This document shows, in pieces, positions 17,196-50,351 of a stretch of DNA of 64,000 nucleotides (position 1 is its first letter; each line of letters begins with the position of its first letter). The notes beneath the pieces are model-generated. The model was given only the letters and a program-made list of their open reading frames with translations. It did no database searches and was not told the DNA's origin. Position numbers and translations under genes: made by a program. Source of the DNA: Escherichia phage vB_EcoM_CRJP21; the sequence record OQ708376.1. The stretch is one strand, 5' to 3'.

Positions 17196-19160
17196 TTATC
17201 TAATTGTTACCAATGTTCTTCCGTCGAAACGTACATCAGGTGTTGAAGGTATACTGAACACTACGTTAGTGCCGTTAAACGTCACGCTATCGACCTCAAC
17301 ACGAGTATAGACACCAGAACTAACCTGTTCCTGTATCTCTGCTGTGACGATGTTTGAGGCTGTTACAGTAAGGGTGTAGTAGTTACCACTTAAGACCCAA
17401 GATGAAATGGTAAAAGCATCGGTTCTCACTGAACCTGAACCAATTGGAACCCATTGACCTTGAACTTTTTGCATTGAAGTACGCTCGGTATTGGAGTATG
17501 CAATCATACCATCAACGCCAACAGAGTTATCAATAGTAGCTAGTACAGGTAATTGGATACCATATCTATTAAAACGTGTTCTTATAGTTCCATTATCATA
17601 GATACTTACATCAGCATAATTACCCATTGATAGTTTTAAATCAGAACTAACTAATTGGATTGTACTTTGATTAGTAGCACTTTCTAATGTAATTATACCA
17701 TTAGCTAATAGATTTATATTTTTAAATTTATTAGTTGTTCCATTAAAATTAGTATTAGCTGTAAAAGTACTAACACCATTAACTGTAATGGTATCTGATG
17801 CAGCATCACCTAATGTGGTATTACCTTGAATGTTCAAATTACCACTAGCAGTTATATTACTAGCTGATGTATCCCCAGTTAATGTACTTGTACCATCAAC
17901 AACAATATTACCATGAAACGCACTTTCGCCATTTTTAAATTCAACTTGAACTTTATTCATTGAACTAAATGAAATAATATTACTACTAGCACTTAATCCC
18001 ACATTAGTATTAGTTGCATTATCAAATCTTAGTACTGGCGTTGATGCAGGTGTTGATGTTGATTGATATAATGTTAGTGTTGAATTATTAATTCGAACAC
18101 GTTCTGTACCAGCAGTACTGAACCCAATTGCGTCATCGGCTGGATGAAATATACCAGTATTAGCATCTGACCACTTAGTTGGGTCATTACCTGGGTTATT
18201 CGTTGGGTCAAACGGATTATTGTTAAATGTCAATGCTGGTGCTGCTGCACTTCCATACACCACCCCAAAACGCCCAGAGCCGTCTGTTCCATCATTATAC
18301 ATGGAATCACCAGTTCTACGTAAACACTCAATCACAACGTTATCTATGGATGTTTGAACGGTCCCTGCGTTTGTCCTAAATTGACGATGATTTGCAATCA
18401 TTACAGTATTGTCATATAATACTGAAGCAGCGGAAATGCTTGTTCTTGACTGGCGTAGACGTATGTTTTTATCTTCAGTTATAATAATCCAATCACCATC
18501 TGATAGTGCGGTTTGGTTCATTGGAACACCTGAAGCAAATGGTTTGGTTAAGTCAGCATCTGTTGCTAAATTTTTAAGACCATCATGACCAGTACTCGGA
18601 ATAGATGCAGGAATAATTCTAGCGAAAGCGTATGTTACTAGTTTAGCACCAGATATATTTGGATTAGAGTCAACATAATATAAAATTTCAATCCAATTAC
18701 CTTGTCCAGTTGGATTTGTAGGAGTAAATGTAACAGGACTTGTTTGTGGATTATTTGCTTCATAATGGGCTTGTGCGGCATCCATAATACCACGAACAAC
18801 ATAATAATCACCATTTAGTGATGCTGCTGGTGCTGGTAGTGGAGTTTGTGCTAAAGGTGGATCAATATCATCTGGAATAGGATTATATGTACCAACAAAT
18901 TGTAAACCACTAGTTACTGAATCTGGTAATTGGGAAGTAAGAAGTTTACCATTTGCATCTAAGTTTGCAAAACGGCGATATGCCATAGTACCATCTTCAA
19001 AATCCAGAACACCTTCAAACGATTTCCATTCCTTATTGTATCTAATCATCCCTGATCTTATTACATCAGCGGTTTCTTTTGATGGTGCTTTCGGTAACTC
19101 TAAAAAAGATTTACTATCGATAATTACACCACCATCACCTCTAATTCGATTTATACTCAT
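17196..19160 (-). CDS. Tail fibre-like protein
   Basis: 654 aa; GAGGAA RBS; Ser/Thr/Asn/Gly-rich beta-structure-like composition (NxT/S-rich stretches); located in the fibre cluster. Confidence 0.5.
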   Translation of the reverse strand: MSINRIRGDGGVIIDSKSFLELPKAPSKETADVIRSGMIRYNKEWKSFEGVLDFEDGTMAYRRFANLDANGKLLTSQLPDSVTSGLQFVGTYNPIPDDIDPPLAQTPLPAPAASLNGDYYVVRGIMDAAQAHYEANNPQTSPVTFTPTNPTGQGNWIEILYYVDSNPNISGAKLVTYAFARIIPASIPSTGHDGLKNLATDADLTKPFASGVPMNQTALSDGDWIIITEDKNIRLRQSRTSISAASVLYDNTVMIANHRQFRTNAGTVQTSIDNVVIECLRRTGDSMYNDGTDGSGRFGVVYGSAAAPALTFNNNPFDPTNNPGNDPTKWSDANTGIFHPADDAIGFSTAGTERVRINNSTLTLYQSTSTPASTPVLRFDNATNTNVGLSASSNIISFSSMNKVQVEFKNGESAFHGNIVVDGTSTLTGDTSASNITASGNLNIQGNTTLGDAASDTITVNGVSTFTANTNFNGTTNKFKNINLLANGIITLESATNQSTIQLVSSDLKLSMGNYADVSIYDNGTIRTRFNRYGIQLPVLATIDNSVGVDGMIAYSNTERTSMQKVQGQWVPIGSGSVRTDAFTISSWVLSGNYYTLTVTASNIVTAEIQEQVSSGVYTRVEVDSVTFNGTNVVFSIPSTPDVRFDGRTLVTIR

Positions 19161-21513: not shown

Positions 21514-24500
21514 TTAAGCAGTACGTTGTGCAATAAACATATCTGTTACTGGACTCACCCCGTCATAAATGACTTGGTAGATAGTTACAGAGTTTGCAGT
21601 TTTGTTTAGAGTTCCATCAACAACCGCATAAGTACCATCAGTAGTAAAGTTTCTATTACCTGTTGCATCTTGTTTTACATAAATGTATACTGAAGATGCT
21701 TTACCACCACCGATTAGACCAGTGATTGGTGCTAGAGTTGTATCTTGATCTAGAGTGATAAAGTATACGTTGCTAGTACCGTCTGGGGTCCAAGTGCCAG
21801 TTGGTGCAATAACAGAAGAAGTTACTTGATTAGGAATAACATCATATTTTTTAGTAGTTACTGTTGTAGTAGTCAAGTCAGCATTAGTAGTTGTTAATTG
21901 ACCAGTTACAGTTACATCTTTATCAAATACTGCATTTTCTTTGAAAGAAGATGTTGCATTGACAGTTAATGTATCAGCAGCCGCGTCACCTAAAACAACA
22001 CTACCATTTGCAGTCATTAATCCAGTAACAGTTAAAGTACCACCGATTGTTGCTGCTCCAGTAACAGATGCACTAGCAAGTGTTGCTGCACCAGAAGTAG
22101 TAATAGTAGTTACTGAAGTTGCTGCTAGGGTTGCAGTACCTGTTGCAGAAATATCACCACCAACAGTTAGGTTACCAGAAGTAATCCCAACGGTTCCAGT
22201 AATGTTAGCACCACTTGACATTGTTACTGCACCACCAAATGAACCAGTAGTAGTTACTTCAAGGGTGTTCCCTTTTAGCAGACCAGTTGCAGTAATACTT
22301 GTACCTGCGGTAATGCTAGTACCAGCAGCAACACTGTTGGTTGCAGTTAATGATTTAACAGCTACATCAGAGTTTGCTTGGTTTAGTGTTGCGTTTAGAA
22401 CACCAGTTACTGTAAAGTTACCGTTGTTAACTACGTTACCATTGATTGTTAAGTTGTTGTTTTGTGAACCAACATCACCAATAGTTGCTGATTTAGAAAT
22501 CAACTCTGCACCAGAAGTAATATTACCCGCTGCACTAATAGTGTCAGCCGCAACAACTGCATAAGGTTCGATTGTTTGACCACTAACATCAATATCAGCG
22601 TTGATACCACCATCTACACGCAAGGAACCAGCAATGTAAGTGTTAGGGAAAATCTGAACTGTTTCTGGTTGTTCACCGATCTTAGTACCAATAATAACAT
22701 TAGAACCAGTTTTCACTGCACCAGAAGTTGTTAGTGAACCTAAAGTTGCTGCACCAGTTACACCTAGTGTACCACCAATTGTTGCATTGTTAGTAACTGC
22801 TAATGCAGTTCCTTCACCATTAAGAGTGATTGATGGAGCAGTTGCTGCACCAGTTACACCTAATGTACCACCAATTGTTGCATTACCATCTGAATGTAGT
22901 GTGGTTGCAACAGAAAGACTGTTTGCAACTACATCAGTACTAGCTAAATCCAATGCACCTGGCGTTAATGTACCAGTAATGTTAACATTATTACCAAAGG
23001 TTGCTGCACCAGTTACATCTATTGTAGTACTAAATGTACCAGAAGTTGCAGATACCGCACCTGAATCTAGTGAACCGACAGTTGCCTTTCCAGTTACACC
23101 TAGTGTACCACCAATTGTTGCATTGTTAGTAACTGCTAATGCAGTTCCTTCACCATTAAGAGCGATTGATGGAGCAGTTGCTGCACCAGTTACACCTAGT
23201 GTACCACCGATTGTTGCATTGCCGTTTGAATGTAGGGTTGTTGCAACAGAAAGACTGTTAGCATCTACATCAGTACTAGATAAATCCAATGCACCTGGGG
23301 TTAACGTGCCAGTAATATTAACATTGTTACCAAATGTTGCTGCACCTGTTACACCTAGTGTAGTACTAAATGTACCAGAAGTTGCAGATATTGCACCTGA
23401 ATCTAGTGAACCGACTGTTGCCTTTCCAGTTACATCTAAAGTACCACCAACTGTTCCATTTGTGGTTACTGCCAATGTACCAGTACTTAATTCTTGTGCA
23501 GTTACCTTACCGGATGCAGTAACAGTTGAAGTGGAAACACCACCAGTTAGAGTACTTGCACCAGTAACACTTAATGTGGTTGCAGCAGTTACGCTATTCA
23601 CGTTAAGATCAGCACCGGATAGGTCCAAACCACCTTCAGGAATAAATGCACCCTTAACAGTTAGTTTTTGTACAGTACTGTCACCAGTTACATCTAGAGT
23701 AGATGCTGTAAGGCCACCATTCATACTAGCTGCACCAGTAACACCAAGGGTAGTAGTTACAGTTGCACTATTAAGGGTAGAGTCACCAGAAATATTAGCA
23801 CTTGGTGCGGTAATAGTTCCTGCATCAACTTGAATACCACCATCAACTACTTGAATACCACCAGTATTAACTGTTAGTTTACCACCAGTTGACAATGTGT
23901 TTGAAACTGTAGTTGCACCAGTTAACGTTGTGGTTCCAGTAACACCCAAGTTACCAGAAATAGATGGACTACCTGTAATGTTACCTGTAGTTAGAATCAA
24001 ATCAGTACCTACAGTGGTAGAGCCAGTACTTTCTAGTGTTACACCGACGATGTTTGCAGAACTTAGGTCAATAGAACCATCAACAGTTAAGTTACCTTGA
24101 ACGGTTGCATCACCTAGAGAAGTTAATGTCTTCACAGACACATCAGTTGTGCTAAGATCAATAACACCCGCAGTTAGTGTTCCAGATACTGCTAAATTAC
24201 CAGTAATCGCGGTATTTTTAGTAATGGATACATTTTCTGCCGCTGAAGTAATAGAACCAACAGTAAGTACACCACCAACAGTTGCGTTATTAGTTACATT
24301 TAGAGCAGTTCCAACACCAGATAGTGTTGCTGACCCACCAGTAATTGCACCTGAGATTGAAGCTGTTGCTGCTGAAACATCACCAGAAACTACTGCATTT
24401 GTTGCATTTAGAGCAGACACTGTAACTTCAGTACTTTGAACTTTAGGTAGAACGTTGATACCTTCTGCACTACTAACTGTAATAATACCAGTACTTGTTA

Positions 24501-27500
24501 GAGATTTAACAGATACATCAGAACCACTTAAATCAACTGTACCAGAAACAACAAGATCTCCACCAATATTTGCTCCAGCGGTAGTAGTAATGGATTTTGC
24601 ACTTACATCAGTTGTGCTCAAATCAATTGCACCTGGTGTTACTGTACCAGAAACTGTTAGGTCACCAGTAATAGATGTATTATTGGAAATAGATACACCA
24701 TCAACGTTACTAATTGTTGGGGTTTCTACAGAAACTGCTTTAACTTTACCTGAAGAAGTTACGTCAGCTACGGTAGATGCACCAGTAACATTCAAATTAG
24801 TAATATTTGCAGTTGTTGAACCAAGGGTTGCAATAGTTGCATCAGTACTTTGAAGTTTAGGTAGAACACTACTAATTGTAGATTCATTACTAACAATTGC
24901 ACCAGTACTAGTTAAAGATTTGACAGTAACATCAGCAGTAGTAAGATCTACTGTACCATTAACAGTTAGGTTACCACCAATAGTTGCACCAGCAGTAGTA
25001 GTAATGGATTTAGCATTAACATCAGTTGTTGCTAGATCGATAGAGCCTGGAATAACTGCACCAGTAACGGTTAGGTCACCAGTTACATTTGTATTATTGG
25101 AAATAGTGACACCACTTGCATTTGAAATGGTTGGGGTAACCAACGATGCAGTTGTAGTTTCACCAGTTACAGTTAAAGTTGACCCAACTAGAACAGATGA
25201 GCTTGAGTAAATTGTACCCAAATTAGCAGATCCGGTAACAGTTATATCATCAGCATTAACAGTAGTTGCCGTTATGGTAGTACTATTAAGTACAGGAAGT
25301 ACGTTAGCATTAACAAGGTCATTACTTTTAACAATACCAGAAGAAGTTAGTGATTTAACGTTAATGTCTGCTGCTGATAAATCAAAAGAACCTTGAACCA
25401 CAAGATCTCCACCAATATTTGCACCAGCGGTAGTAGTGATTGATTTCGCACTAACATCAGTAGTACTCAAATCAATTGTACCTGGGGTTACTGTACCAGT
25501 AACTGTTAGATTTCCAGTAATATCAACATTTTCTGTGAAGTTAGTATTACCACTAATAGTTGGTGCAGTCAGAGTTGTTGCACTAATATTAGTACCGTTA
25601 ATTGTTTGTCCACTTACAGTTCCACTCGCAGTGATAGTAGGAGCCGTTACTTCAGTAGATGCACTAATTGTTGGTGCAGATACAGAAGTTGTACCAGTAA
25701 TAGAACCAGAACTTACTGAACCAGCGGATAATGCACCAGAAAGAGTTGCAGTTGTACCAGCAATATCACCAGTAACAGTTAGTTTAGCACCCACGGTAGT
25801 GTTACCAGTACTTTCAAGGGTTGCACCTTTAATATTTGTCGCAGCAACAACTGAGTTTGGTGTTAGATCCTGACCACTTACATCAACAGTTAACCCAGTT
25901 ACGGTGCCAGTAAAATCGACATCATTAAGAATTGCTTTACCACCAACTTGTAGGAATGGTGTACTAGGGTCTTGTGTTGCGTTACCTGTAATGGTTAGGT
26001 AATCTAATTTGTTTAGGCCATTACCAGTAATACCATACGTAGAAAGTGCAGCATTACCAAAAGTTGCCGTTTTTAGAACGTTCAGTGTTGAAGGAGAAAC
26101 TAATTCTGATTGAACTTCGTTAGGTAAAATCACGGTTGGACGTTGACTTGGTGCAGTATATCCAAATCCAAGTTTTACAGCAGAATCTTGACTACTTTGG
26201 CCTAAGCTGATAGCTTTAAATGATGCAGTACTATTATACCCAGTAATATTAGAACCAAGAGTAACACCACCAACTAATGAAGTTGCACCAGTAACGTTCA
26301 AAGATGCTGCATTAATATCGTCTAATTGGAATGTTCCACCAAGAACACCAGAAATATTAATATTATTAAAATTAGCAGTTCCAGTACTTTCAATATTTGG
26401 TATAGTTGCAGTTCCGGTGACTTCAAAGTCAGCAACTTTGGTTTTTCCTTTTTGAACTTCTAATAGTGGTGTATCTGGAGCTTGTGTTTCGTTACCAGAA
26501 ACTGTTAGATAATCTAATTTGTTTAGGCCATTACCAGTAATGCCATAAGACGATAATGACGCATTACCAAAAGTTGCAGTTTTAAGAACGTTCAATGTAG
26601 AAGGAGAAACTACTTCTGATTGAACTTCATTAGGTAGAATAACTGTTGGGCGTTGACCGGGTGCAGTATATCCAAAACCTAGTTTCACTGCTGCATCTTG
26701 ACTATTTTGACCTAAGCTAATAGCTTTAAAGGTAGCAGTACTATTATACCCAGTAATATTAGAACCAAGAGTAACACCACCAACTAACGAAGTGGCCCCA
26801 GTAACGTTCAATGTTACTGCATTAATATCATCTAGTTGGAATGTTCCACCAAGAACACCAGAAATATTAATATTATTAAAATTAGCAGTTCCAGTACTTT
26901 CAATATTTGGTATAGTTGCGGTTCCTGTAACTTCAAAATCGGCAACTTTGGTTTTTCCTTTTTGAACTTCTAATAGTGGGGTGTCTGGTGATTGTGTATT
27001 GTTACCAGAAACTGTTAGATAATCTAATTTGTTTAGACCATTACCAGTAATACCATAAGAAGATAATGACGCATTACCAAAAGAAGCAGATGTCAAAACT
27101 GTTAAGTTTGCAGGTGACATTAACTCGGACTGAATTTCGTTTTGTAGAATAACAGTTGGGCGTTTACCAGGAGCAGTGTAAGGGAAGCTTAATCTGAAGG
27201 TTTGTGATTCAGAGTTAGAACCAATACGAATGTCTTTAAAAGTAGCAGTACTGTTAATACCAGTTACGTTAGCACCGAAAGTTACTGCACCTTGTTGGTT
27301 AGATGCACCAGTAACGTTCAATGTTACTGCATTTAAGTCAGATAGATTAAACTCACCACCAAGTGTACCACTAATTGTCACATCTTTAAATGTAGCAGTA
27401 CCAGTACTACTAATATCTGTTGTACTTACATTAGTAATTTCTGCGGTATTAGCAGTAATTTTATCAAATGCAGCAGTAGTCCCAACATCAGCAGTAATAT

Positions 27501-27903
27501 TACCTTTAAATGCTGTTGTTTCAGCAACTTCTAAGTTTTTAACTTTAGTTGCTTGTAGAGTGGTTGTACCAGCAGTTTGTGTAAAATCAGAACCAACTGA
27601 TACAGTACCGTTAAAGGTAGCGTTTGAATTAATTGTTGCTGTATCAGACCCGACCACTGCACTACCGATTGTAGTATTACCCTCAACACCAAGACCACCA
27701 GAAAGTGTTGCTTTGCCACCTACATCTAAAGTAGATGTAATATTGGCAGTTGATGATTCAATGGCAGTAAAAGTTGCATTTGCAAAAGTTACAGTACCAT
27801 TTACAGTTAGGTTATTGTTGAAAACAGCATTTCCTTTGACTAAAAGATCCTTACCAACCGTACCAGCACCAGTAATATCTAAGTCAGTTTTTATTGAGTA
27901 CAT
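21514..27903 (-). CDS. Giant repetitive fibre / adhesin-like structural protein
   Basis: 2129 aa, Thr/Gly/Ala/Val/Ser/Asn-rich; GGAGGG RBS; built from at least three families of tandem repeats; no enzymatic motif. Confidence 0.6.
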   Translation of the reverse strand: MYSIKTDLDITGAGTVGKDLLVKGNAVFNNNLTVNGTVTFANATFTAIESSTANITSTLDVGGKATLSGGLGVEGNTTIGSAVVGSDTATINSNATFNGTVSVGSDFTQTAGTTTLQATKVKNLEVAETTAFKGNITADVGTTAAFDKITANTAEITNVSTTDISSTGTATFKDVTISGTLGGEFNLSDLNAVTLNVTGASNQQGAVTFGANVTGINSTATFKDIRIGSNSESQTFRLSFPYTAPGKRPTVILQNEIQSELMSPANLTVLTSASFGNASLSSYGITGNGLNKLDYLTVSGNNTQSPDTPLLEVQKGKTKVADFEVTGTATIPNIESTGTANFNNINISGVLGGTFQLDDINAVTLNVTGATSLVGGVTLGSNITGYNSTATFKAISLGQNSQDAAVKLGFGYTAPGQRPTVILPNEVQSEVVSPSTLNVLKTATFGNASLSSYGITGNGLNKLDYLTVSGNETQAPDTPLLEVQKGKTKVADFEVTGTATIPNIESTGTANFNNINISGVLGGTFQLDDINAASLNVTGATSLVGGVTLGSNITGYNSTASFKAISLGQSSQDSAVKLGFGYTAPSQRPTVILPNEVQSELVSPSTLNVLKTATFGNAALSTYGITGNGLNKLDYLTITGNATQDPSTPFLQVGGKAILNDVDFTGTVTGLTVDVSGQDLTPNSVVAATNIKGATLESTGNTTVGAKLTVTGDIAGTTATLSGALSAGSVSSGSITGTTSVSAPTISASTEVTAPTITASGTVSGQTINGTNISATTLTAPTISGNTNFTENVDITGNLTVTGTVTPGTIDLSTTDVSAKSITTTAGANIGGDLVVQGSFDLSAADINVKSLTSSGIVKSNDLVNANVLPVLNSTTITATTVNADDITVTGSANLGTIYSSSSVLVGSTLTVTGETTTASLVTPTISNASGVTISNNTNVTGDLTVTGAVIPGSIDLATTDVNAKSITTTAGATIGGNLTVNGTVDLTTADVTVKSLTSTGAIVSNESTISSVLPKLQSTDATIATLGSTTANITNLNVTGASTVADVTSSGKVKAVSVETPTISNVDGVSISNNTSITGDLTVSGTVTPGAIDLSTTDVSAKSITTTAGANIGGDLVVSGTVDLSGSDVSVKSLTSTGIITVSSAEGINVLPKVQSTEVTVSALNATNAVVSGDVSAATASISGAITGGSATLSGVGTALNVTNNATVGGVLTVGSITSAAENVSITKNTAITGNLAVSGTLTAGVIDLSTTDVSVKTLTSLGDATVQGNLTVDGSIDLSSANIVGVTLESTGSTTVGTDLILTTGNITGSPSISGNLGVTGTTTLTGATTVSNTLSTGGKLTVNTGGIQVVDGGIQVDAGTITAPSANISGDSTLNSATVTTTLGVTGAASMNGGLTASTLDVTGDSTVQKLTVKGAFIPEGGLDLSGADLNVNSVTAATTLSVTGASTLTGGVSTSTVTASGKVTAQELSTGTLAVTTNGTVGGTLDVTGKATVGSLDSGAISATSGTFSTTLGVTGAATFGNNVNITGTLTPGALDLSSTDVDANSLSVATTLHSNGNATIGGTLGVTGAATAPSIALNGEGTALAVTNNATIGGTLGVTGKATVGSLDSGAVSATSGTFSTTIDVTGAATFGNNVNITGTLTPGALDLASTDVVANSLSVATTLHSDGNATIGGTLGVTGAATAPSITLNGEGTALAVTNNATIGGTLGVTGAATLGSLTTSGAVKTGSNVIIGTKIGEQPETVQIFPNTYIAGSLRVDGGINADIDVSGQTIEPYAVVAADTISAAGNITSGAELISKSATIGDVGSQNNNLTINGNVVNNGNFTVTGVLNATLNQANSDVAVKSLTATNSVAAGTSITAGTSITATGLLKGNTLEVTTTGSFGGAVTMSSGANITGTVGITSGNLTVGGDISATGTATLAATSVTTITTSGAATLASASVTGAATIGGTLTVTGLMTANGSVVLGDAAADTLTVNATSSFKENAVFDKDVTVTGQLTTTNADLTTTTVTTKKYDVIPNQVTSSVIAPTGTWTPDGTSNVYFITLDQDTTLAPITGLIGGGKASSVYIYVKQDATGNRNFTTDGTYAVVDGTLNKTANSVTIYQVIYDGVSPVTDMFIAQRTA
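22640..23460 (-). repeat. Tandem coding repeat family 1 (~321-bp units) in the giant fibre gene
   Basis: Near-identical DNA blocks around 22770-22900 and 23090-23230, encoding repeated ...NATIGGTLGVTGAATAPSI.LNGEGTALAVTNNATIGGTLGVTG...; boundaries approximate. Confidence 0.6.
24450..25520 (-). repeat. Tandem coding repeat family 2 (~420-bp units) in the giant fibre gene
   Basis: Repeated DNA around 24590, 24990 and 25420, encoding ...IDLSTTDVSAKSITTTAGANIGGDLVV.G..DLS... units; boundaries approximate. Confidence 0.55.
25950..27430 (-). repeat. Tandem coding repeat family 3 (~510-bp units, about 3 copies) in the giant fibre gene
   Basis: The string taatctaatttgtttaggccattaccagtaat recurs near 26001, 26511 and 27021; protein repeats GNASLSSYGITGNGLNKLDYLTVSGN..Q.PDTPLLEVQKGKTKVADFEVTGTATIPNIESTGTANFNNINISG... 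Confidence 0.65.
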
Positions 27904-28006
27904 TTATACCCTCCATTATAACCTTGTTAATATGTATATATTTAGTTTTATTATGCTGTTATCCAACAATTAATATGTTATTTGACAAAAGCAAATATAA
28001 TAAAAA

Positions 28007-28042
28007 ACCAGACTTATTTAGGACAAGTCTGGTTAATTTTTT
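28007..28042 (-). terminator. Rho-independent terminator after the 298-aa fibre gene
   Basis: Perfect 10-bp stem AACCAGACTT / AAGTCTGGTT flanked by an A-tract upstream and a T-tract downstream (so a U-run follows the stem on either strand). Confidence 0.55.
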
Positions 28043-28939
28043 TTACTTACCAGAGATGACAATCTTACCACTGAAAGAAATATCAGAAGTGAAGATTACA
28101 TCACCAGTACTACTAATTTGTGTATCAGTCACTACCAATTCAAATGGAGATGACGCAACACTCCCAGGTGTTTTATTTGCATAAATTGAAATATACAAAT
28201 TATCTGGTGTTTGATTGTGTTCAGATGCAGGAATAGTGATTGTAAAATCACCAGCACTAGAAACCCAATCTGCTTGGTTTACCAATTTACTATAAGGTAC
28301 TGTCATTGTTGTTGCTCCTATAATGTTTACTTTAACACTTGCATAATCTGTGATTTGACCAATCACATCAATTGTTATATCCCCAATACCACTAACTGTT
28401 ACTGTGGTTTGGAATACTGATTCCAATGCAACATTACCTGGGTCACCTTGTAGTTGGATCATAATATCAGAACCTCTACCATGAACTGATTCTGGTAGTG
28501 TGTAAGTATAATGATCAGTAGTATCTGGTACTAATGTAAATGCAGAAACAGGAACTATTTCAGTAGTTACATATGAACTATCAGTCCCAGGTGAGCTACC
28601 TTTAAATGGTTTCCAAATACCAAGATCTTTAATATAAATTTGAAGAACATTAGTACTATCAACCAAAAAGTAAACGTCACCATCTAGACCGATTGAATCG
28701 GATGGTGCTGTTGTTCCACGTAAGATACCAGAACTACCACCACCACTGTGTGCGTTTAAATATCCCAATGTAACCAAGTGTGTGTTTGCAGTTGGTTCAC
28801 CTGCTGAAATTGGAAGAAGTTGTGTTCCTGAGTAGTTTTGAATTTGCACAACACTACCATTTGTGGTAATCTGTGCACCATTCTTCCCAAGAATGAAGGA
28901 CTTCTTCATGGTTCCTTCTAAATTAGAAAAAACTGCCAT
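28043..28939 (-). CDS. Receptor-binding / tail fibre protein sharing an N-terminal adaptor with the next gene
   Basis: 298 aa; AAGGAG RBS; N-terminus MAVFSNLEGTMKKSFILGKNGAQI nearly matches the start of 28956..31097. Confidence 0.5.
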   Translation of the reverse strand: MAVFSNLEGTMKKSFILGKNGAQITTNGSVVQIQNYSGTQLLPISAGEPTANTHLVTLGYLNAHSGGGSSGILRGTTAPSDSIGLDGDVYFLVDSTNVLQIYIKDLGIWKPFKGSSPGTDSSYVTTEIVPVSAFTLVPDTTDHYTYTLPESVHGRGSDIMIQLQGDPGNVALESVFQTTVTVSGIGDITIDVIGQITDYASVKVNIIGATTMTVPYSKLVNQADWVSSAGDFTITIPASEHNQTPDNLYISIYANKTPGSVASSPFELVVTDTQISSTGDVIFTSDISFSGKIVISGK

Positions 28940-28955
28940 TTTAATATAATCTCCT

Positions 28956-31097
28956 TTATGGTAGGGTTATGTAAGTTACGGGTTGGGCAGCTTTTAATGC
29001 TGCACCAGCGGCAGTTGCTGTTATGATAGGATCTGCAATATCAATTCTATATACGTTGTTTACAACATACACTGCACGAGTTATATACGTTCTCAAATCA
29101 CCACCATTTTCACCAGCACCGGATATAATGATCTCAGTACCAGCAGCTTTTGCATATTGGTTTTCACCCCATGACACACCCAATGCTTCTATGTATGTTT
29201 GTCCTGCTACCGTTTGTCTAATTGTGTCATATTTTCCGAAAAAAGAACCACCAACAGTTACAATATATTTTCCACCCGATTGTTTATGAATAATCGTGCC
29301 TTCAGAGAAATAGCGTCCCCCAGGAAAAGTATCGTATGGAATATAATATTGCTCAACTACAGGTATCAGTACTGGGCCACGGTGACCTGTACCATCGATT
29401 GCAGTTGTAACTTTAAAGTTATTAGATGATTGGTCTATTCTGTCTACATACATTTTAGAAAAACTATATTTTGAAACATTACAATCATCTTGAACAACAC
29501 AGTTAGTCCAATTAGTATAAGTATATTTAGAGCGAGTATAGATACCACCACCTTCGCCTTCGGTAGAGAGGTGTTGACCAATTACATCTAATTCTTTAGT
29601 TCTAATATCACTAAATTTAGATGATGATGGCAAACCACGCCAAAGGATTTTAGAACAAGTGATATTGCTCAATTCTGTATTATTTAACCAATTATCAGAA
29701 CCGGAAGTATAAACAAGTATAGAAGACTCTGGAATATAGAGATTAGAAATTTTAAAGTTTCTAGGTGGTCCAGCAAAACGACCAGAAGTTACACCCCAGT
29801 TTATTGAAACCATTCTATTTGTGATAGAAGGATCATTAAGCAAATGACCAGTCAACCCATCAATAATGAATTCTTTCGAACCATAAGTTATAACACCAGC
29901 AGTGGTTAATCCAGTACCAACAGAAACTAAAGATGATGGATAAACTTCATTATTAAGTATTTTAAAGTCCATTCCTAATTCAACGTGTATACATTGTCTA
30001 ACATTATATAGTCTGTTATTTTTAATAACAAAGTTTCTGACATATTGTGTATCTGGTGCATCTAAACCATAAGGACCAGAACCAGCAACGCCAATACCAA
30101 TGCCCCAGTTTGAAAGTGGGATTGGAGCGTTAGAACCATCAACGTTTTCAATTACGTTTCCTTCAATCACAAAACCATCAGGATAATGTGAGTTAATTAC
30201 GTTTAGTTCAATTGCATCACCATAGATATCATGAATATGGTTATATGAATATCTACCAACCTTCATTTTCTCACCAGTACCTTGTTGAAGAACACCATAC
30301 TTACATTGGGTCATTTCATTAAAGCAAAAATCTATTGTTCCTGGTTGTGTCATACCTTGCATTAAAAATGCAGCAGTACTTGTGATGTTTATAAATTTAT
30401 TAAAATAAAACTTACCATCGCCACCGAAGAATTTTAAATAACATCCAGTAAGTGTTGCAAATTGTATTTGGGAATTAATAACAGATACCATAGTACCACC
30501 GTTACCAGTAATAGTTCCCCCAAACCAAGTTACATCTTCTAGGTATATTGCAGTTTTGATACGGTAATTACCACCAGCCTGAATTTGGATTTTATTTTCT
30601 TTAGCATAAGCAGCACATAAATTTACAGCAGCAGTGTCATCAGTTTCGCCATCACCTTTAGCACCAAATTCTTCTGGTGTTATATAAAACTGGGCCTGTT
30701 GAACTGTACCTCCAGTAATAAGTCCGATGAAATCGCCACCATTTTTACTGGATAGAACTTTTTTATTAATGTATAATGATTTTACCCATGTACCATTACT
30801 TTTTGCAAAAATATCAACAATACCATCTTCATCAATTTGAAAATACGTATTATTGTTCTTTCCTACATCATCGGTAGGGGGTACAACACCAAATAATGCA
30901 TTAGGGTTATCTTCAAGATATTTTACGTTAACTGCTGAATTAGGGTCAGATGAAGTTCCTACCTTCAGTGGTAGGAACTGTTCTCCTAGATAATCTTTTA
31001 TAGAAACTGAATCATTGATAAAATTTATTGAAGCACCTTTTTTCCCCAATATGAATTTGGGCTGCATAGTTCCTTCAAAATTAGAAAATACTGCCAT
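28956..31097 (-). CDS. Tailspike-like protein with pectate-lyase-type (right-handed beta-helix) domain; putative polysaccharide depolymerase
   Basis: 713 aa; GGAGGA RBS; shared N-terminal adaptor MAVFSNFEGTMQPKFILGKKGASI; motif TPEEFGAKGDGETDDTAAVNLCAAYAKE typical of pectate-lyase-3-type tailspike beta-helices. Confidence 0.6.
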   Translation of the reverse strand: MAVFSNFEGTMQPKFILGKKGASINFINDSVSIKDYLGEQFLPLKVGTSSDPNSAVNVKYLEDNPNALFGVVPPTDDVGKNNNTYFQIDEDGIVDIFAKSNGTWVKSLYINKKVLSSKNGGDFIGLITGGTVQQAQFYITPEEFGAKGDGETDDTAAVNLCAAYAKENKIQIQAGGNYRIKTAIYLEDVTWFGGTITGNGGTMVSVINSQIQFATLTGCYLKFFGGDGKFYFNKFINITSTAAFLMQGMTQPGTIDFCFNEMTQCKYGVLQQGTGEKMKVGRYSYNHIHDIYGDAIELNVINSHYPDGFVIEGNVIENVDGSNAPIPLSNWGIGIGVAGSGPYGLDAPDTQYVRNFVIKNNRLYNVRQCIHVELGMDFKILNNEVYPSSLVSVGTGLTTAGVITYGSKEFIIDGLTGHLLNDPSITNRMVSINWGVTSGRFAGPPRNFKISNLYIPESSILVYTSGSDNWLNNTELSNITCSKILWRGLPSSSKFSDIRTKELDVIGQHLSTEGEGGGIYTRSKYTYTNWTNCVVQDDCNVSKYSFSKMYVDRIDQSSNNFKVTTAIDGTGHRGPVLIPVVEQYYIPYDTFPGGRYFSEGTIIHKQSGGKYIVTVGGSFFGKYDTIRQTVAGQTYIEALGVSWGENQYAKAAGTEIIISGAGENGGDLRTYITRAVYVVNNVYRIDIADPIITATAAGAALKAAQPVTYITLP

Positions 31098-31111
31098 TAT
31101 GACATCCTCCC

Positions 31112-32227
31112 TTAAATATTATCTTGAATCGGTTGGATAGGAGCTTGCCATGAAAGAGTACAAATAATTTCCATTTTTCCATAAGGACTGTTGTTAACAG
31201 AATCGTTGAATACACATGAAATAATTTCATCAACATCGGATGCTGCATGATTAGTTTCATTAACAATAAAACGCATCTGACGATTGATATCAAAGTAGGA
31301 AGTTGGTGCAATTACCGTCCCGCCAATATCTTCTTGTGCTTCACCACCAAAACGTACAAACATATCAGTTACTGGAAGAGAATAAGGTTGTATAACGTTT
31401 ACATCAATATTAGAAACTACATATCCAGCAGGACATGTACCAATAACTAATAGTGCGTTAGTCCATGAGCTATCTATGGTATTTCTAATAGAAATTGTAT
31501 CTTTACCTGGTGCACCTGGTTCGCCTTGTATACCTTGAATACCTTGCTGGCCTTCTTTACCACGGAATAGAATACCCTCACTCCACTCTTTTGAAGGAGG
31601 GGTAGTTGTAGTTACTTCATCAACATAATATAGTTTTCCATCAGTGTTGTTATAAAAACAATAATCAACTGGAAGATTTTCAATACTTGGAAATTGATCA
31701 CCACTGCTATCAATATGGAAACGACCACGCGGACCTTGTTCACCACGGAAAGGTATACCATCACTCCAAGTAGCAGTTACACTTTGATAGAAATAAAGTT
31801 TACCATCTTGAGTATTATAAAATGTATAGTTATTAAAAAGACCAGTTGTTGGGAAAGTAGTTCCAGCACTATCAATGTGGAACGGCTTACCCGCTTCACC
31901 CGTATCACCTTTACCAAACTCAACACTAATCCATGTACTTGTCGGATCTTGTGCATCATTTGATTTAAAGTATAGAGTACTGGTATTGTTAGCCAAGCTT
32001 AAGTAGCACCACCCAAGTGGTTCACCAACTTTAAATTGTTCGGAAGGAATTTCAAAACCAATCTCATTAGGATAAAAGTTTTTACCATTCTCGCCATTCT
32101 GTCCTACAACAAGACCTAAATCTTGAATTGTGTTATCTGCATAGGTTACAATTAAATGCCCAGCACCATTAATAACTAGACTTTTGATGCCGGAGTTATT
32201 ACATGAACCATTAAATGAAATTGTCAT
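31112..32227 (-). CDS. Collagen-like (G-X-Y repeat) fibre protein
   Basis: G-X-Y runs GEQGPRG and GKEGQQGIQGIQGEPGAPGKD; ATG at 32227 (M13 of the track ORF) has an AGGGA RBS, whereas the track start at 32263 is a TTG. Confidence 0.55.
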   Translation of the reverse strand: MTISFNGSCNNSGIKSLVINGAGHLIVTYADNTIQDLGLVVGQNGENGKNFYPNEIGFEIPSEQFKVGEPLGWCYLSLANNTSTLYFKSNDAQDPTSTWISVEFGKGDTGEAGKPFHIDSAGTTFPTTGLFNNYTFYNTQDGKLYFYQSVTATWSDGIPFRGEQGPRGRFHIDSSGDQFPSIENLPVDYCFYNNTDGKLYYVDEVTTTTPPSKEWSEGILFRGKEGQQGIQGIQGEPGAPGKDTISIRNTIDSSWTNALLVIGTCPAGYVVSNIDVNVIQPYSLPVTDMFVRFGGEAQEDIGGTVIAPTSYFDINRQMRFIVNETNHAASDVDEIISCVFNDSVNNSPYGKMEIICTLSWQAPIQPIQDNI

Positions 32228-32337: not shown

Positions 32338-32835
32338 ATGGCATTAAGATCAAAAGACTTTCTCTTCAGAAGAAAAACAAAAGATGGTTCATGGCAAGAT
32401 TTTCCTGAATCTGATAGCTGGTATCCAGCTAACTTGGATTATCACTGGAATGAACAAACGTTACCACTCGCAAGTGGTGGCTACTATGGCTGTACTACAG
32501 GTTTACATACTATTTCATTTACACTACGTAATTTTATTGGTAGAATTTATGTATTAGCTACATTAGCTAGTAATCCTACTGATGATGATTGGTTTCCAAT
32601 TAAATTCACTGAAAGTTGTAATTATTATCTTGAATTTACTGATATGGTTATTTTAAATCCAAATGGTGGGGATTTAATTAGACAACAAGGAACTACCGGA
32701 ACATTTGCTGAAACAGTAACTGGTAATTTTACTTACCTTAAAGTTGGTATAGACCGTGATTATATTAGTAAGTATCCATCAGATGTCCAAAAAAGTTTAG
32801 CTGGGAAGTTAGAACAAATTTTAATTAACTACTAA
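32338..32835 (+). CDS. Hypothetical protein (possible baseplate or fibre accessory)
   Basis: 165 aa with RBS; no recognisable motif. Confidence 0.4.
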   Translation: MALRSKDFLFRRKTKDGSWQDFPESDSWYPANLDYHWNEQTLPLASGGYYGCTTGLHTISFTLRNFIGRIYVLATLASNPTDDDWFPIKFTESCNYYLEFTDMVILNPNGGDLIRQQGTTGTFAETVTGNFTYLKVGIDRDYISKYPSDVQKSLAGKLEQILINY

Positions 32836-32844
32836 GGATTAGAA

Positions 32845-33453
32845 ATGAAATTAGAAACAGAACAACCAAAACTATTTGTTAAAGGTCATGTCCTAATTAC
32901 TGACGTTACTGATCCATCAAATCAAAAAATCGTTTTAGATAAATCTAACGCTATTCACCCTGAAAATATGAGTACTGCCATTGCTAATGCGTTAGCATAT
33001 AATCAAGACAGTACTGGTATTCCTATTGGTTCTATTAGCGAGATGCGTTTTGGTAATGGTGGTACAGTAGTTTTAAGTACTGGTCGTGTTACTTATAAAA
33101 AACCACGTGTTACATCATTCGGTGGTTTGTATTCACAAACATATTTGAAAAAAATCAACCCACGAATTACGGCAGGTATTGATTCACAATACAATAATAT
33201 TACAACTGTACATATACCAGGACAGTCCTATACTGATATTGTATGTATTTGTACTCTAGGGTTAGGTGAACCATCCGACCAAGGTGTAAGCTCAGGGACA
33301 AGCATGGATGGAACTTATGTATTTGATGAATTGGGATTGTACACGGATGGCGATAGTGGTATTCCTTTAACCCATATCATTTTTCACCCAGTTGAGAAAA
33401 GTGCAAACCGTGTCTTACAAATTAAATACACAGTTCGTGTACAATTACAATAA
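32845..33453 (+). CDS. Hypothetical structural protein
   Basis: 202 aa tightly following the previous ORF. Confidence 0.4.
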   Translation: MKLETEQPKLFVKGHVLITDVTDPSNQKIVLDKSNAIHPENMSTAIANALAYNQDSTGIPIGSISEMRFGNGGTVVLSTGRVTYKKPRVTSFGGLYSQTYLKKINPRITAGIDSQYNNITTVHIPGQSYTDIVCICTLGLGEPSDQGVSSGTSMDGTYVFDELGLYTDGDSGIPLTHIIFHPVEKSANRVLQIKYTVRVQLQ

Positions 33454-33465
33454 TGGGGACATATA

Positions 33466-34566
33466 ATGAGTGTTAATTATACAATTTATAGAAGTAATGG
33501 TAGTGTTTATGCTACCATTCCAAATAATGTTATTTTAGGACCAAACCAGCCCGGAAGTAACCCAGTTCCGTTAAATTTAGTTGGTAGAAATAAAGTAAGT
33601 TACGGTCAAGCGTGGAATGAAAACTTTTTACATTTAGTTGAAAATTTCAGTTCAGCATCTGCACCACGTGGCAACGTCAATGGTCAACTTTGGTATAGAA
33701 ACACTGGTAGTACTGGTGAGTTATTGATATCATTAGTTGATAATGCTAGACAACCTGCTGATATGGTAAGTGAAGCTGAATGGGCGTCTATCCCTATGAT
33801 TACTGTTTTTAACACAGTACCTGATGGTGAAAATAGTGTTATGGGTCGTATGGTATTAACTAGTAACGGTGATTCTCTTCGTGTGTTAATGAAAAACAAA
33901 GAATGGCGTGAAATTCAAACATCTAGACCAGAAAACAAAGAGTATTCATCATTATTAGATATTAACTATGATAATGGTAAAAAATATATAGAGTTCACAC
34001 AAAGTAATAGTACTAAACCGATTGCGTATTTTAACTTAGGTGGTACTTCACAAGTAGATACAAATAACTGGACAACATTAACTAATGGTACTGGTGTCTT
34101 TGAATTTGGTAGCAACTATTTCTATGAATTAAAAATTATGATTAGAGAAGTAAATGATTCTTCTGGTGAGATAGTTTCTCTTCCATACAATTCCAAAACC
34201 TTTTTTATAAAAGGGCAATTTTATGTAGATAATCAAGGAACTTTTGTTCCTGGTTCGGTGGGGGCAAGTCAAATGCCAGACCCACGTAGGATTACACAAT
34301 TAGAATCCATTAAAGATGTTATTACCAGTAGTCGCCCAAACTGGGACGTAAATATTGTTATTAATGGTGTAGATCCATCTATCCCAAATCCTAATGGAAC
34401 ATCTAAAGCTGATTATGAAAATTGGGTTATCAATTCTCTAAACTCAAATAAAAATTTAGGTTTTCGAGTTGATGGTAGTATTAGTAATCTAACTGCTGGT
34501 GAATCCGTTAAACTACAAGCATCCGTGTTGTTAAATATTACAGGTATTCCGATTATTGGAGTATAA
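33466..34566 (+). CDS. Putative tail fibre / baseplate protein
   Basis: 366 aa; N-terminal region with PLNLVGRNKVSYGQAWNENFLHLVENF, reminiscent of fibre N-terminal attachment regions (weak). Confidence 0.35.
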   Translation: MSVNYTIYRSNGSVYATIPNNVILGPNQPGSNPVPLNLVGRNKVSYGQAWNENFLHLVENFSSASAPRGNVNGQLWYRNTGSTGELLISLVDNARQPADMVSEAEWASIPMITVFNTVPDGENSVMGRMVLTSNGDSLRVLMKNKEWREIQTSRPENKEYSSLLDINYDNGKKYIEFTQSNSTKPIAYFNLGGTSQVDTNNWTTLTNGTGVFEFGSNYFYELKIMIREVNDSSGEIVSLPYNSKTFFIKGQFYVDNQGTFVPGSVGASQMPDPRRITQLESIKDVITSSRPNWDVNIVINGVDPSIPNPNGTSKADYENWVINSLNSNKNLGFRVDGSISNLTAGESVKLQASVLLNITGIPIIGV

Positions 34567-40343: not shown

Positions 40344-43300
40344 TTACTTAACTAATAATATATTTTTAATATCATTACCACTAACTTGTAGACTATCAGT
40401 GTATACTGAAAGATCTATAGTGTAACTATTTTGTGTGTAACGTTTTAACATATCATAATTACCTAAATTAATTCCATTGAAAGAATATGTAGTATTAAGT
40501 TTAAAATCATGTTCTGCACTATACATTACACCACGGAGTAAATTATTTGCATTTCTAACTTCAACTTTTTCATATCCAATCGATATAATATCATTCATGT
40601 TTGCGGCTGAACCGGATAAAACATTATTTCTAATACTATAAGGACTTATTGATTTAGGTTGAGAAACATAGGTTGTATTTTCTTCACTAATGGTTGTGAT
40701 GTTAGTAACAGTACCACCAACAACACCGATATACATACCGTCAACCATTGGGAATCCATAAACCCATATCCCTTCATTATTTCTAAACGGTTGAATAACA
40801 CTTGAATCATATTCGATAACGTTGATTTCTAAACTATCAGTCATTTTAGTTCTTGCCAATTCACTAAGAACTCCCGCACCCGTAATTGGTAAGTTATAAC
40901 CGTTATCGATAGTAATTCCATCAACATCAAATATTTCATTAGAGATTATCCAAACGTCAACGTCATCTGGTGTTATTCCGTCATTGTACTTACCACCATT
41001 TAAAGTAGTATCGTAGAAAACATCATAATTAATTACATCAATGGTGTAATTTCTATTTTGTTCATACAATTTAATACCATTCTTGACAAATTCAGGGTCA
41101 GCAAATGTTCTAACACGAACAATGTTCAATGCTAGAGGCTGTACTGGCTCATTTTGTTGTGCAAGAGTGATGTTATCATAACGGAGAACTGCACCAGTAC
41201 TCTCATCAATCAATTCAATCGTTTCCTTACCTGTATTTCTTACAGTGAATAGGATCGGAGTTGTATTGTTTTTGATGTTAGATACACGCAAGATTGTTTC
41301 CCATGTGTGATTTTGATATCTCACAAAATCTTCACCATCAGGAGTGAAAATCATCACCTTATCACCATCAGATAGGTCATTGTCAACTATTTCTGCTTCA
41401 GTTAAGCTATTAATAGATCTCACACGATAGAAATATTTTTCATCAAACTTCGATGTTGTTTTATTAATATCATTTTCAATCTTAGCATATGAAGGAATAC
41501 TTACAATTGCTTCTGTATGTTTATATGGATTGATAATTGCCATACCTTCAGTTTGATATCTGCTGTTATCACGTAATTGTACAAGAGATACATTGTCAAA
41601 CCCATATCCATCAACTGTAAATCTAATTTGACCTACATCACGCCCAGAAGGGTTTATGTCAGATATATCCACAATATAAGGATCAACTTCATCATCTTTA
41701 ACTTCCCATTTTATTGAAGAAGTTTGAGATTCCAATGCTAGGTTATCAAATGCATTCATATCATTGAAGTACTTAGCTTCAGTAATACTATCAAGTATAT
41801 ATTGATAATCAGAATACATTGGATTATTTTGATCTAGTGGTAAATCATCAAGATTTATTTCAGCTAGTTCAACCATTTCACCATTTGTGATAAAATAATC
41901 TTCCATGAAATCATCAATACTTTGTTCATCAGGTATACTTTGATATACACCGTTAACATTTAAGTAAACATATTTTCGTGGAATCATTGTAATTGCATAG
42001 ATATCAATTGGGGTCTTACTAAGAATCTCTTCAGCTTTTTCGTACTTATCAGTAGCGTCTTTGTCGAATAACCCTCTCATACCTGCTAATACGTGAATAG
42101 CATCAGTATAGAAACGGGTATCACCACCTACTTCATCATAACGATAAACATATACACCATACTCAACTTCAAGTTTAACTTTTACTTCATAGTCTGATGC
42201 GTCAGGATTTTTATCTTTAATTAATGAAATGTATTTTTGATACAATTCACTGCTTATTTCAAAATATCCATAGTTATAATCATTACTAGAAGAAAAGCCT
42301 AATGGAAGTCTAGTACTAGGATTGTCATTATAAGTAAGTCCACTAAATCCACATCCAACTTCATCGTGAATTTTCTCATCACTTATATCTTTATAAAGTT
42401 TCAAACGGTTTGCCAATGTGTTATACTGAACATATTGTCTAAGGTCAGTAAACATATCGTTATGCGTTGATTCTTTATAAACACGTTCCAATGTAGCAGT
42501 GAATTCATCAGTTGCTTCTAAATCTTCCGCATGGTCTTTATACCACTGGTTAACGCCATATGCTGTTCCTAGTGTTACATCCAATTCTGGATAGTAGATT
42601 TGCATTTGATAAGCAATAAGAAGATCGAAAGTTTCTTCACTATATTCTGGGAAAGAATATATATAACGTTGTAATTCATAGTTACTAACAGCATCCTTTT
42701 CATTGGATTGATATTTGTTATTAACACTTACTAATTCATTTATGCTTGCCAAATCTTCATTTGGTTTACACTGAATATTATCATAATGCATAATAATATC
42801 AATTTCTTGGAATCTTCTATTTGGTGTAACGAAATCACTTGGTAGTGAACCTACCTGTTCCCATTTTTGGGTAATTTCATTAAATTGAGCGTACTCATAA
42901 TCCCAAATATCTTTTTCAGTTTTGATCCAAGAACCATCAACGAAAATATATCCATTAGGATCTAAATCATTACATAGACCTTTTATTAAATCATCATCAG
43001 ATGTCTTTTGCTCTATTTGTGAACGAATTTTAGTTCTATAAGGTTTAACTTCTTCAAAATATTCAACAATTTGATTAATCAAATTATCGTTTGAATAGTT
43101 TTGAACTAATGATTGTTCCAAACCAACAATATAGATATATGATGTTTTAAATACCCAATCCACAACACTTTGTTCAACATGTACATATTTGACCATATCA
43201 AAAACAATTTCGCTTTGATGTAAATCGAAAGAATTTTTGAGTAAAGCTAGTGCTTTACGAACGTTGATTTCACGATTGCTTAGTGAACCATTATCATTAT

Positions 43301-50315: not shown

Positions 50316-50351
50316 TTTTGGACTCCATATAATTCGTTCATTCATTTGATT

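Follow-up and report, generated by a model that had tools for sequence, protein, structure and literature searches.

Why should a predicted polysaccharide-degrading spike and a conserved virion protein of the same phage begin with the same N-terminal region? The question is raised by two adjacent genes, encoding proteins of 713 and 298 amino acids (aa), in a 64,000-nucleotide (nt) stretch of DNA from Escherichia phage vB_EcoM_CRJP21 (OQ708376.1), the whole of which we refer to as the window. A sequence-only reading of this DNA, made without database searches, had seen in the pair a swappable host-range cassette; the open reading frame (ORF) listing confirms the two adjacent ORFs that it named and places both on the minus strand, which it had left unstated. 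Over a 6-kilobase (kb) stretch, the DNA matches Escherichia phage PBECO4 at 99.9% identity and phages 121Q, G17, and Sharanji at 99.7%, and PBECO4/121Q-type phages are jumbo myoviruses of the genus Asteriusvirus. We consider it probable that a two-part N-terminal region mounts both a colanidase spike and a conserved virion protein in the tail of PBECO4/121Q-type phages, and that the colanidase gene is an Asteriusvirus-specific addition.

The similarity between the two proteins extends well beyond their opening residues. BLASTP aligns them with 41 identities over 109 residues (38%, E 1e-19), and the identity is unevenly distributed, at 72% over residues 1-25 and 29% over residues 26-108. The same uneven split is found in six Asteriusvirus genomes (72-76% and 25-32.5%, respectively). 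The sequence-only reading had described ≈25 nearly identical residues followed by complete divergence; the first part of this description stands and the second does not, as the homology extends by alignment to about residue 105-110, some four times further. In the DNA itself, the starts of the two genes are copies of a 73-nt direct repeat; the copies are 75% identical and lie 2158 nt apart. Two of the three differences within the first 11 codons are synonymous, and constraint therefore acts at the protein level. Neither tblastn nor a profile search found a third copy of the shared N-terminal domain in the window, and our literature search found no mention of a shared N terminus for these two Asteriusvirus genes.

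A profile of the N-terminal domain, built from both window proteins and 11 relatives, was searched against 1.84 billion cluster representatives and gave 480 matches at E <= 0.001, which fall into two classes. In the first class, profile positions 1 to ≈67-72 occupy the extreme N termini of at least 23 representatives that range from 113 to 1366 aa and differ in their C termini. Among these are a 780-aa protein with a beta-helix and a Peptidase_S74 chaperone domain (P0169), a 705-aa protein with a Beta_helix domain (P0183), long fibers of 1204-1366 aa (P0194, P0203, P0233, P0255, and P0281, of which the two that were scanned, P0194 and P0233, carry BNR-type repeats), several proteins of ≈290 aa, and stand-alone proteins of 113-115 aa. 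In the second class, positions ≈65-112 recur, usually as 2-16 stretches per protein, inside long fiber proteins that often contain collagen repeats. The first ≈65 residues are found at the extreme N terminus only, and never internally, in every module-bearing representative listed. On the strength of these matches, the region common to the two window proteins is a portable N-terminal module of ≈65 residues followed by one copy of a common fiber repeat. A glycine-rich stretch of low model confidence lies at residues 47-69 of the 298-aa protein. The module matches nothing in the Pfam, NCBIfam, or PDB sequences that we searched.

The module-bearing contigs that we compared share the module alone with the window. 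On one of these, an uncultured 120-kb phage contig of which 22 kb were compared, P0169 and P0183 lie in a single fiber-gene cluster (L015 10001-12343 and 18571-20688), and both begin MAIFS(N/S)L.GTM. With two module-headed spikes on an otherwise dissimilar contig, a design of two spikes and one N-terminal module therefore recurs. Between the two genes are two paralogous fiber genes of ≈900 aa, the products of which have N termini resembling the 909-aa JP4 virion protein JP4_235. A search of the viral collection for loci related to P0169 and P0183 brought up nothing informative. The syntenic gene of phages RaK2 and K64-1 encodes the N-terminal domain only, in an ORF of 115 aa (RaK2 ORF061w, L008 5001-5348; K64-1 gp067, L002 12001-12348); the giant fiber and DUF4376 genes are missing, and the ortholog of window 17196..19160 comes next. 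This gene order recurs in an uncultured lineage, where the ORF is 113 aa long (P0145, L018 10001-10342) and its first 65 residues share ≈52% identity with the RaK2-type ORF; the giant fiber and DUF4376 genes are again missing. Because intact ORFs end at the domain boundary across that divergence, these data suggest that the N-terminal domain has a role of its own.

Judging from where it lies, how portable it is, and how strongly its first 25 residues are conserved, the module most likely attaches each protein to the particle; the extreme N terminus is where particle-binding domains are found in known spikes. We infer that it would act as a portable attachment element, mounting different distal domains on the same kind of virion site. 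The module probably also nucleates trimers, and the fiber repeat may help in trimer formation.

Beyond this region, the 713-aa protein is related to a tailspike of known structure. Its residues 96-712 align end to end in phmmer with residues 11-623 of 6e0v_A (E 1.8e-235), which corresponds to 57% identity with Phi92 gp150 (structure 6E0V), and identity to the colanidase of the Phi92-like phage W22 is 57.3%. We take the fold of the Phi92 gp150 tailspike to be a right-handed beta-helix. A beta-helix is predicted for the 713-aa protein from its 57% identity to this solved structure. The protein also matches PHROG 6117, "colanic acid degradation" (E 3e-264), and is 100% identical to 121Q gp573; BF17 ORF313 has been reported as homologous to PBECO4 gp547. 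Relatives of the catalytic part occur in 255 phage records behind several different N termini. These data support the spike proposed in the sequence-only reading as a polysaccharide-degrading protein of the tailspike type and a predicted colanidase. They also bear out the proposed modularity of its N terminus, in that the ≈65-residue module heads other beta-helix spikes and long fibers, whereas in Phi92-like phages the colanidase module follows an unrelated N terminus of ≈190 residues (804 aa in total) in place of the ≈95-110-residue region that the 713-aa protein has in common with its neighbor.

The description of the spike as pectate-lyase-type fares less well. The FGAKGDGETDDTAAV string is present, at residues 144-158 (window 30624..30668), and the match of residues 143-250 to Pfam PF12708 (Pect-lyase_RHGA_epim; E 3.2e-5, 24.3 bits) falls below the 27-bit gathering cut-off. 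According to Xu et al. 2025, as related in a passage of a 2026 phi92 paper (PMC13450770), gp150 hydrolyzes the beta-1,4 glucose-fucose bond of colanic acid and is a hydrolase rather than a lyase, so the description does not hold beyond the fold. The distal part of the 713-aa protein would be a WcaM-related colanidase of the Phi92 gp150 type that hydrolyzes colanic acid, by which the phage would cut the slime layer of mucoid E. coli and reach the cell surface. No assay of the PBECO4/121Q colanidase protein turned up in our literature search.

Several records name the 713-aa ortholog a "colanic acid biosynthesis protein," a label transferred from the host WcaM family. WcaM models match residues 262-459 of the phage protein (NCBIfam E 2e-26, 92.6 bits against an equivalog cut-off of 794.6 bits), and a precomputed Pfam match to PF27800 WcaM is also recorded. 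The phage protein differs from E. coli WcaM, a protein of the colanic acid gene cluster, in its fiber-type N terminus. The label is misleading; by homology to Phi92 gp150, the phage protein is predicted to be a degrading enzyme. Truncated alleles of the gene also occur. Phage JP4 has an in-frame allele of 201 aa (L006 8001-8606) from which 512 codons, comprising the whole beta-helix, are gone (residues 152-663; window 29109..30644), with the deletion joined at a GGCGAAA/GGTGAAA microhomology. A second allele, P0075 from an NCBI E. coli assembly, resembles that of JP4 but is shifted by one codon (GDGET joined to GGD versus GDGE joined to NGGD), and the two thus seem to be independent deletion events. 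Both alleles retain the N-terminal 151 residues and the last ≈50. When residues 1-168 of the spike were used as a protein query, only two truncated alleles were returned.

The 298-aa protein is of a different kind. It matches PHROG 10468, "virion structural protein," over residues 1-298 (E 5.5e-100), and its relatives from a protein search number 73, with lengths of 203-309 aa and identities of 41-100%; 72 of them cover the full query (the exception is P0073, 203 aa). Full-length homologs at 41-85% identity are found in phages of Escherichia, Cronobacter, Pectobacterium, Erwinia, Yersinia, and Salmonella. Its ortholog CBB_227 has been detected by mass spectrometry in purified CBB virions, with 5 peptides and 32% coverage, and the window protein is a full-length member of this CBB_227/GAP32_221 family of Rak2-like virion proteins (52-57% identity to the GAP32/CBB groups), from which it shows no difference of substance. 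The AlphaFold2 (AF2) model, with a predicted local distance difference test (pLDDT) score of 80, has a three-strand unit at residues 14-35, repeat strands at 72-111, and beta sandwiches at 124-207 and 216-296. The pLDDT falls below 50 at residues 1-9 and 51-69, and the low score of residues 1-9 would fit an arm that becomes ordered on a partner.

In the sequence-only reading, this protein was the second binder of a host-range cassette, a role that its conservation across six host genera and the two generic immunoglobulin-like (Ig-like) sandwiches of its modeled C terminus do not support. We find neither a host-varying distal domain among these homologs nor a recognizable receptor-binding fold in the AF2 model. 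In Alcyoneusvirus, the giant fiber and the Ig-like part of the 298-aa gene are missing together, and because the two are lost together, the 298-aa protein is possibly connected with the giant fiber. It is more likely a structural or accessory protein tied to the neighboring giant fiber than a host-specific receptor binder.

The distribution of the N-terminal domain bears on which of the two genes came first. Each genome among the 32 module-bearing Escherichia records has two copies of the domain; a single copy, that of the 298-aa ortholog, is present in GAP32, CBB, Serratia BF, and phages of Yersinia, Erwinia, and Xanthomonas, as well as in other Salmonella phages. Two copies are found only in Asteriusvirus and one elsewhere, and the 298-aa gene is therefore the older, with the colanidase gene a genus-level addition. 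The 298-aa protein would be an older single-copy virion component, structural or accessory in nature, that ends in two Ig-like domains. Outside Asteriusvirus, the nearest relatives of the colanidase module are in Phi92-like coliphages. The colanidase gene may have arisen when a diverged copy of the N-terminal region was joined to a colanidase module at about residues 96-110, where the 713-aa protein resembles both its paralog and gp150.

Comparison with related phages shows no exchange of cassettes. Each of the five genomes compared in detail has a colanidase behind the second copy, and no different distal domain was found at this locus within the genus, so the swapping that had been proposed is not observed here. 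Relative to the window, the N-terminal domain and the catalytic part of the colanidase are, respectively, 67% and 89% identical in Turkey5, 77% and 88% in BF17, and 84% and 95% in UE-S1, and in phage A4 they are similarly divergent (58% and 63%). Of these four genomes, the ones that differ from the window, three therefore have the N-terminal domain as the most divergent part of the colanidase. The 298-aa protein reverses this pattern among coliphages, with 57-82% identity in the C-terminal part and 78-93% in the N-terminal domain. Overall, the interpretation offered in the sequence-only reading is partly supported.

Several observations weigh against a shared mounting role for the N-terminal region. 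The JP4 virion proteome of 49 proteins lists neither protein, and the colanidase gene is truncated in that phage; the phAPEC6 virion table lists no colanidase, and both genes are unannotated in that record. In PHROGs, the category of the colanidase family is "moron, auxiliary metabolic gene and host takeover" and not "tail." The N-terminal module is without a solved or curated relative, and its role is deduced from position only. No docking partner was identified: the structure model of the 371-aa protein encoded upstream shows no T4 gp10-like platform domain, and this protein has no homolog in the DNA compared from other module-bearing contigs. Finally, a single deletion may have removed the Ig-like part together with the giant fiber, and their shared absence would then reflect linkage rather than function.

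Of the alternatives, the one that survives best, and that we nevertheless hold to be unlikely, is the model of the sequence-only reading itself, in which two receptor-binding proteins on a common adaptor form a swappable host-range cassette, a capsule-degrading spike together with a second binder. Such an adaptor would agree with the fusion of the module to very different distal domains elsewhere and with the existence of another phage that has two spikes with a common module. At this locus, however, no unrelated replacement is seen, the second gene is a colanidase in each Asteriusvirus genome compared in detail, and JP4 carries a deletion allele. Ig-like domains can bind glycans, and among coliphages the 298-aa protein varies more in its C-terminal part than in its N-terminal domain, but that C-terminal part is homologous across the six host genera. 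Colanic acid has a common structure across Enterobacteriaceae, and the spike would for this reason remove a barrier without conferring strain specificity. The faster evolution of the colanidase N-terminal domain relative to the catalytic part, seen in three of four differing genomes, also counts against this model. With the 298-aa protein so widely conserved and its C terminus generic, dual receptor specificity finds no support.

It is less probable still that the shared region is a folding or trimerization unit, or a chaperone handle, and not a virion attachment element, in which case the two proteins need not occupy equivalent sites. In its favor, long fibers with collagen contain many copies of the repeat that makes up the second half of the region, and the module is present in contigs that are otherwise dissimilar to the window in the DNA compared. 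Against it, the first ≈65 residues are confined to the extreme N terminus in the representatives listed, as are the particle-binding domains of known spikes, and the retention of stand-alone N-terminal domains in two diverged lineages is hard to reconcile with it.

A bolder form of the mounting hypothesis, to which we assign a similarly low probability, is that the MAVFSN-type module is a general plug for a common jumbo-phage tail socket and can carry any distal domain, be it a colanidase, another depolymerase, an Ig-like protein, or a BNR fiber. One candidate socket would be the sheath-ring or collar sites of the "hairy" appendages of phAPEC6 and CBB, and the stand-alone 113-115-aa forms of RaK2-like phages would be socket caps. 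If this is true, the genes behind the phAPEC6/CBB hairs would be named, which would provide a handle for engineering them. The idea of the 371-aa protein as a gp10-like socket finds no support; it is modeled as a short fiber in which repeats and a short collagen-like stretch are followed by a C-terminal jelly roll resembling trimeric capsid cement proteins.

Very improbable is a soluble, non-virion colanidase freed at lysis to thin the slime for progeny, with the N-terminal similarity a leftover of gene fusion: the PHROGs category, the absence of the enzyme from both virion proteomes, and the viability of in-frame deletion alleles would fit it, but the proteomes are uninformative because JP4 carries a truncated gene and the phAPEC6 record leaves it unannotated, the gene lies within the fiber operon, residues 1-25 are still 72-76% identical to those of the virion paralog in all the genomes tested, which indicates continuing selection, and the homolog gp150 is termed the Phi92 colanidase tailspike in the literature (6E0V), although a 2026 phi92 study found that the predicted gp150 structure did not fit the fiber II density, its formerly speculated place (PMC13450770).

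The genes for the 371-aa, 713-aa, and 298-aa proteins are closely spaced, with 14 nt between the first two and 16 nt between the ORFs of the last two, and Shine-Dalgarno-like sequences (AAGGAG and GGGAGGA) precede both ORFs of the pair. A terminator-like hairpin at 28034..28006 sits directly 3' of the 298-aa stop codon, the giant fiber gene follows 139 nt further on, and a terminator is annotated at the equivalent place in the UE-S1 record. Given this order, spacing, and hairpin, the three genes look like one leftward tail-fiber transcription unit. Promoter-like matches in the region are no commoner than in shuffled sequence, and no promoter was assigned. The 371-aa gene is counted from its annotated ATG at 32227; with the TTG start of the ORF list, its length would be 383 aa. 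Gene order in 121Q is the same as here, and its annotations read "tail protein" (gp574), "colanic acid-degrading protein" (gp573), "structural protein" (gp572), and "long tail fiber proximal subunit" (gp571); both genes of the pair are therefore already annotated publicly. In the phAPEC6 record (MK817115.1; locus L003 6905..10110), no coding sequence (CDS) is given for the 298-aa and 713-aa orthologs, though the DNA is 99.2% identical, and because the CDS features are lacking, the published phAPEC6 virion proteome could not have reported either protein. The coordinates of all features are collected in the table.

Table. Features of the paralogous gene pair and its surroundings, in window coordinates (range, strand, and basis or remark)
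Feature	Position	Strand	Basis or remark
Giant fiber gene, 2129 aa, downstream	21514..27903	minus	121Q gp571 ortholog; context
Intrinsic-terminator-like hairpin and T-run	28006..28034	minus	12-base-pair stem; closes unit 371 aa - 713 aa - 298 aa
298-aa conserved virion protein gene	28043..28939	minus	ORF listing; stop codon included; 121Q gp572, CBB_227 ortholog
Two beta-sandwich (Ig-like) domains, residues 124-296 of 298-aa protein	28052..28570	minus	
Residues 1-112 of 298-aa protein: module 1-65 and fiber repeat 70-112	28604..28939	minus	BLASTP, AF2 model
73-nt direct repeat, copy 1	28875..28947		Spans 298-aa gene start; repeat search and DNA alignment
713-aa colanidase tailspike-type gene	28956..31097	minus	ORF listing; stop codon included; 121Q gp573
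Neck and catalytic domain, residues 96-712, Phi92 gp150 (6E0V) homolog	28962..30812	minus	phmmer; includes FGAKGDGETDDTAAV string
Fiber repeat, residues 66-110 of 713-aa protein (G..P....G..Y.Q.D......I..K..G.W)	30768..30902	minus	Profile positions ≈65-112
N-terminal module, residues 1-65 of 713-aa protein (MAVFSNFEGTM...ILGKKGA...)	30903..31097	minus	Profile search
73-nt direct repeat, copy 2	31033..31105		Spans 713-aa gene start; repeat search and DNA alignment
371-aa upstream co-oriented gene	31112..32227	minus	From annotated ATG; 121Q gp574 "tail protein"; context, outside paralog pair

The surroundings of the unit show further features. The giant fiber, which has been detected in JP4 virions, varies in length among near-identical phages, with 2129 aa here and in JP4, 1841 aa in 121Q and phAPEC6, and 1959 aa in UB. 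Its gene holds a 336-nt tandem repeat at 22732..23460 (2.2 copies, 91% matches), which suggests that the length changes by recombination between the repeats. On the plus strand at 32338..34566, three divergent genes for proteins of 165, 202, and 366 aa are kept beside the fiber unit in every Rak2-like phage inspected; JP4 virions contain the products of 165 and 366 aa, and the three products are possible candidate partners of the fiber proteins. Farther along the window, on the minus strand at 40344..50345, is a 3333-aa ORF orthologous to the 121Q gp582 "virion structural protein," followed by large minus-strand ORFs of 1153, 887, and 749 aa.

The mounting of variable distal domains on conserved N-terminal domains is well described for CBA120, G7C, RaK2 gp526-534, and phiKp24, and the related N-terminal and unrelated distal domains found within one phage in the CBA120 TSP1-4, G7C, RaK2 gp526-534, and phiKp24 systems are like those seen here. 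The catalytic part, residues 96-712, has its counterparts in Phi92 gp150 (6E0V/6E0W) and in the colanidase spikes of Justusliebigvirus, Phapecoctavirus, and small podoviruses, with 57-58% identity to the Phi92-like enzymes. The pair is thus a modest new instance of a known modular tail design in an already annotated phage. What is new is that a spike and a conserved virion protein have a two-part N-terminal region in common, that its first ≈65 residues are a portable module absent from the Pfam and PDB sequences searched, and that recurrent in-frame deletions remove the beta-helix but leave the N-terminal region in place. By homology, the analysis confirms a colanidase in PBECO4/121Q-type jumbo phages, which would be useful against mucoid, phage-resistant E. 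coli, and it corrects the biosynthetic label found frequently in sequence records. If the module is an attachment element, residues ≈96-110 would mark a boundary for exchanging distal domains in phage engineering.

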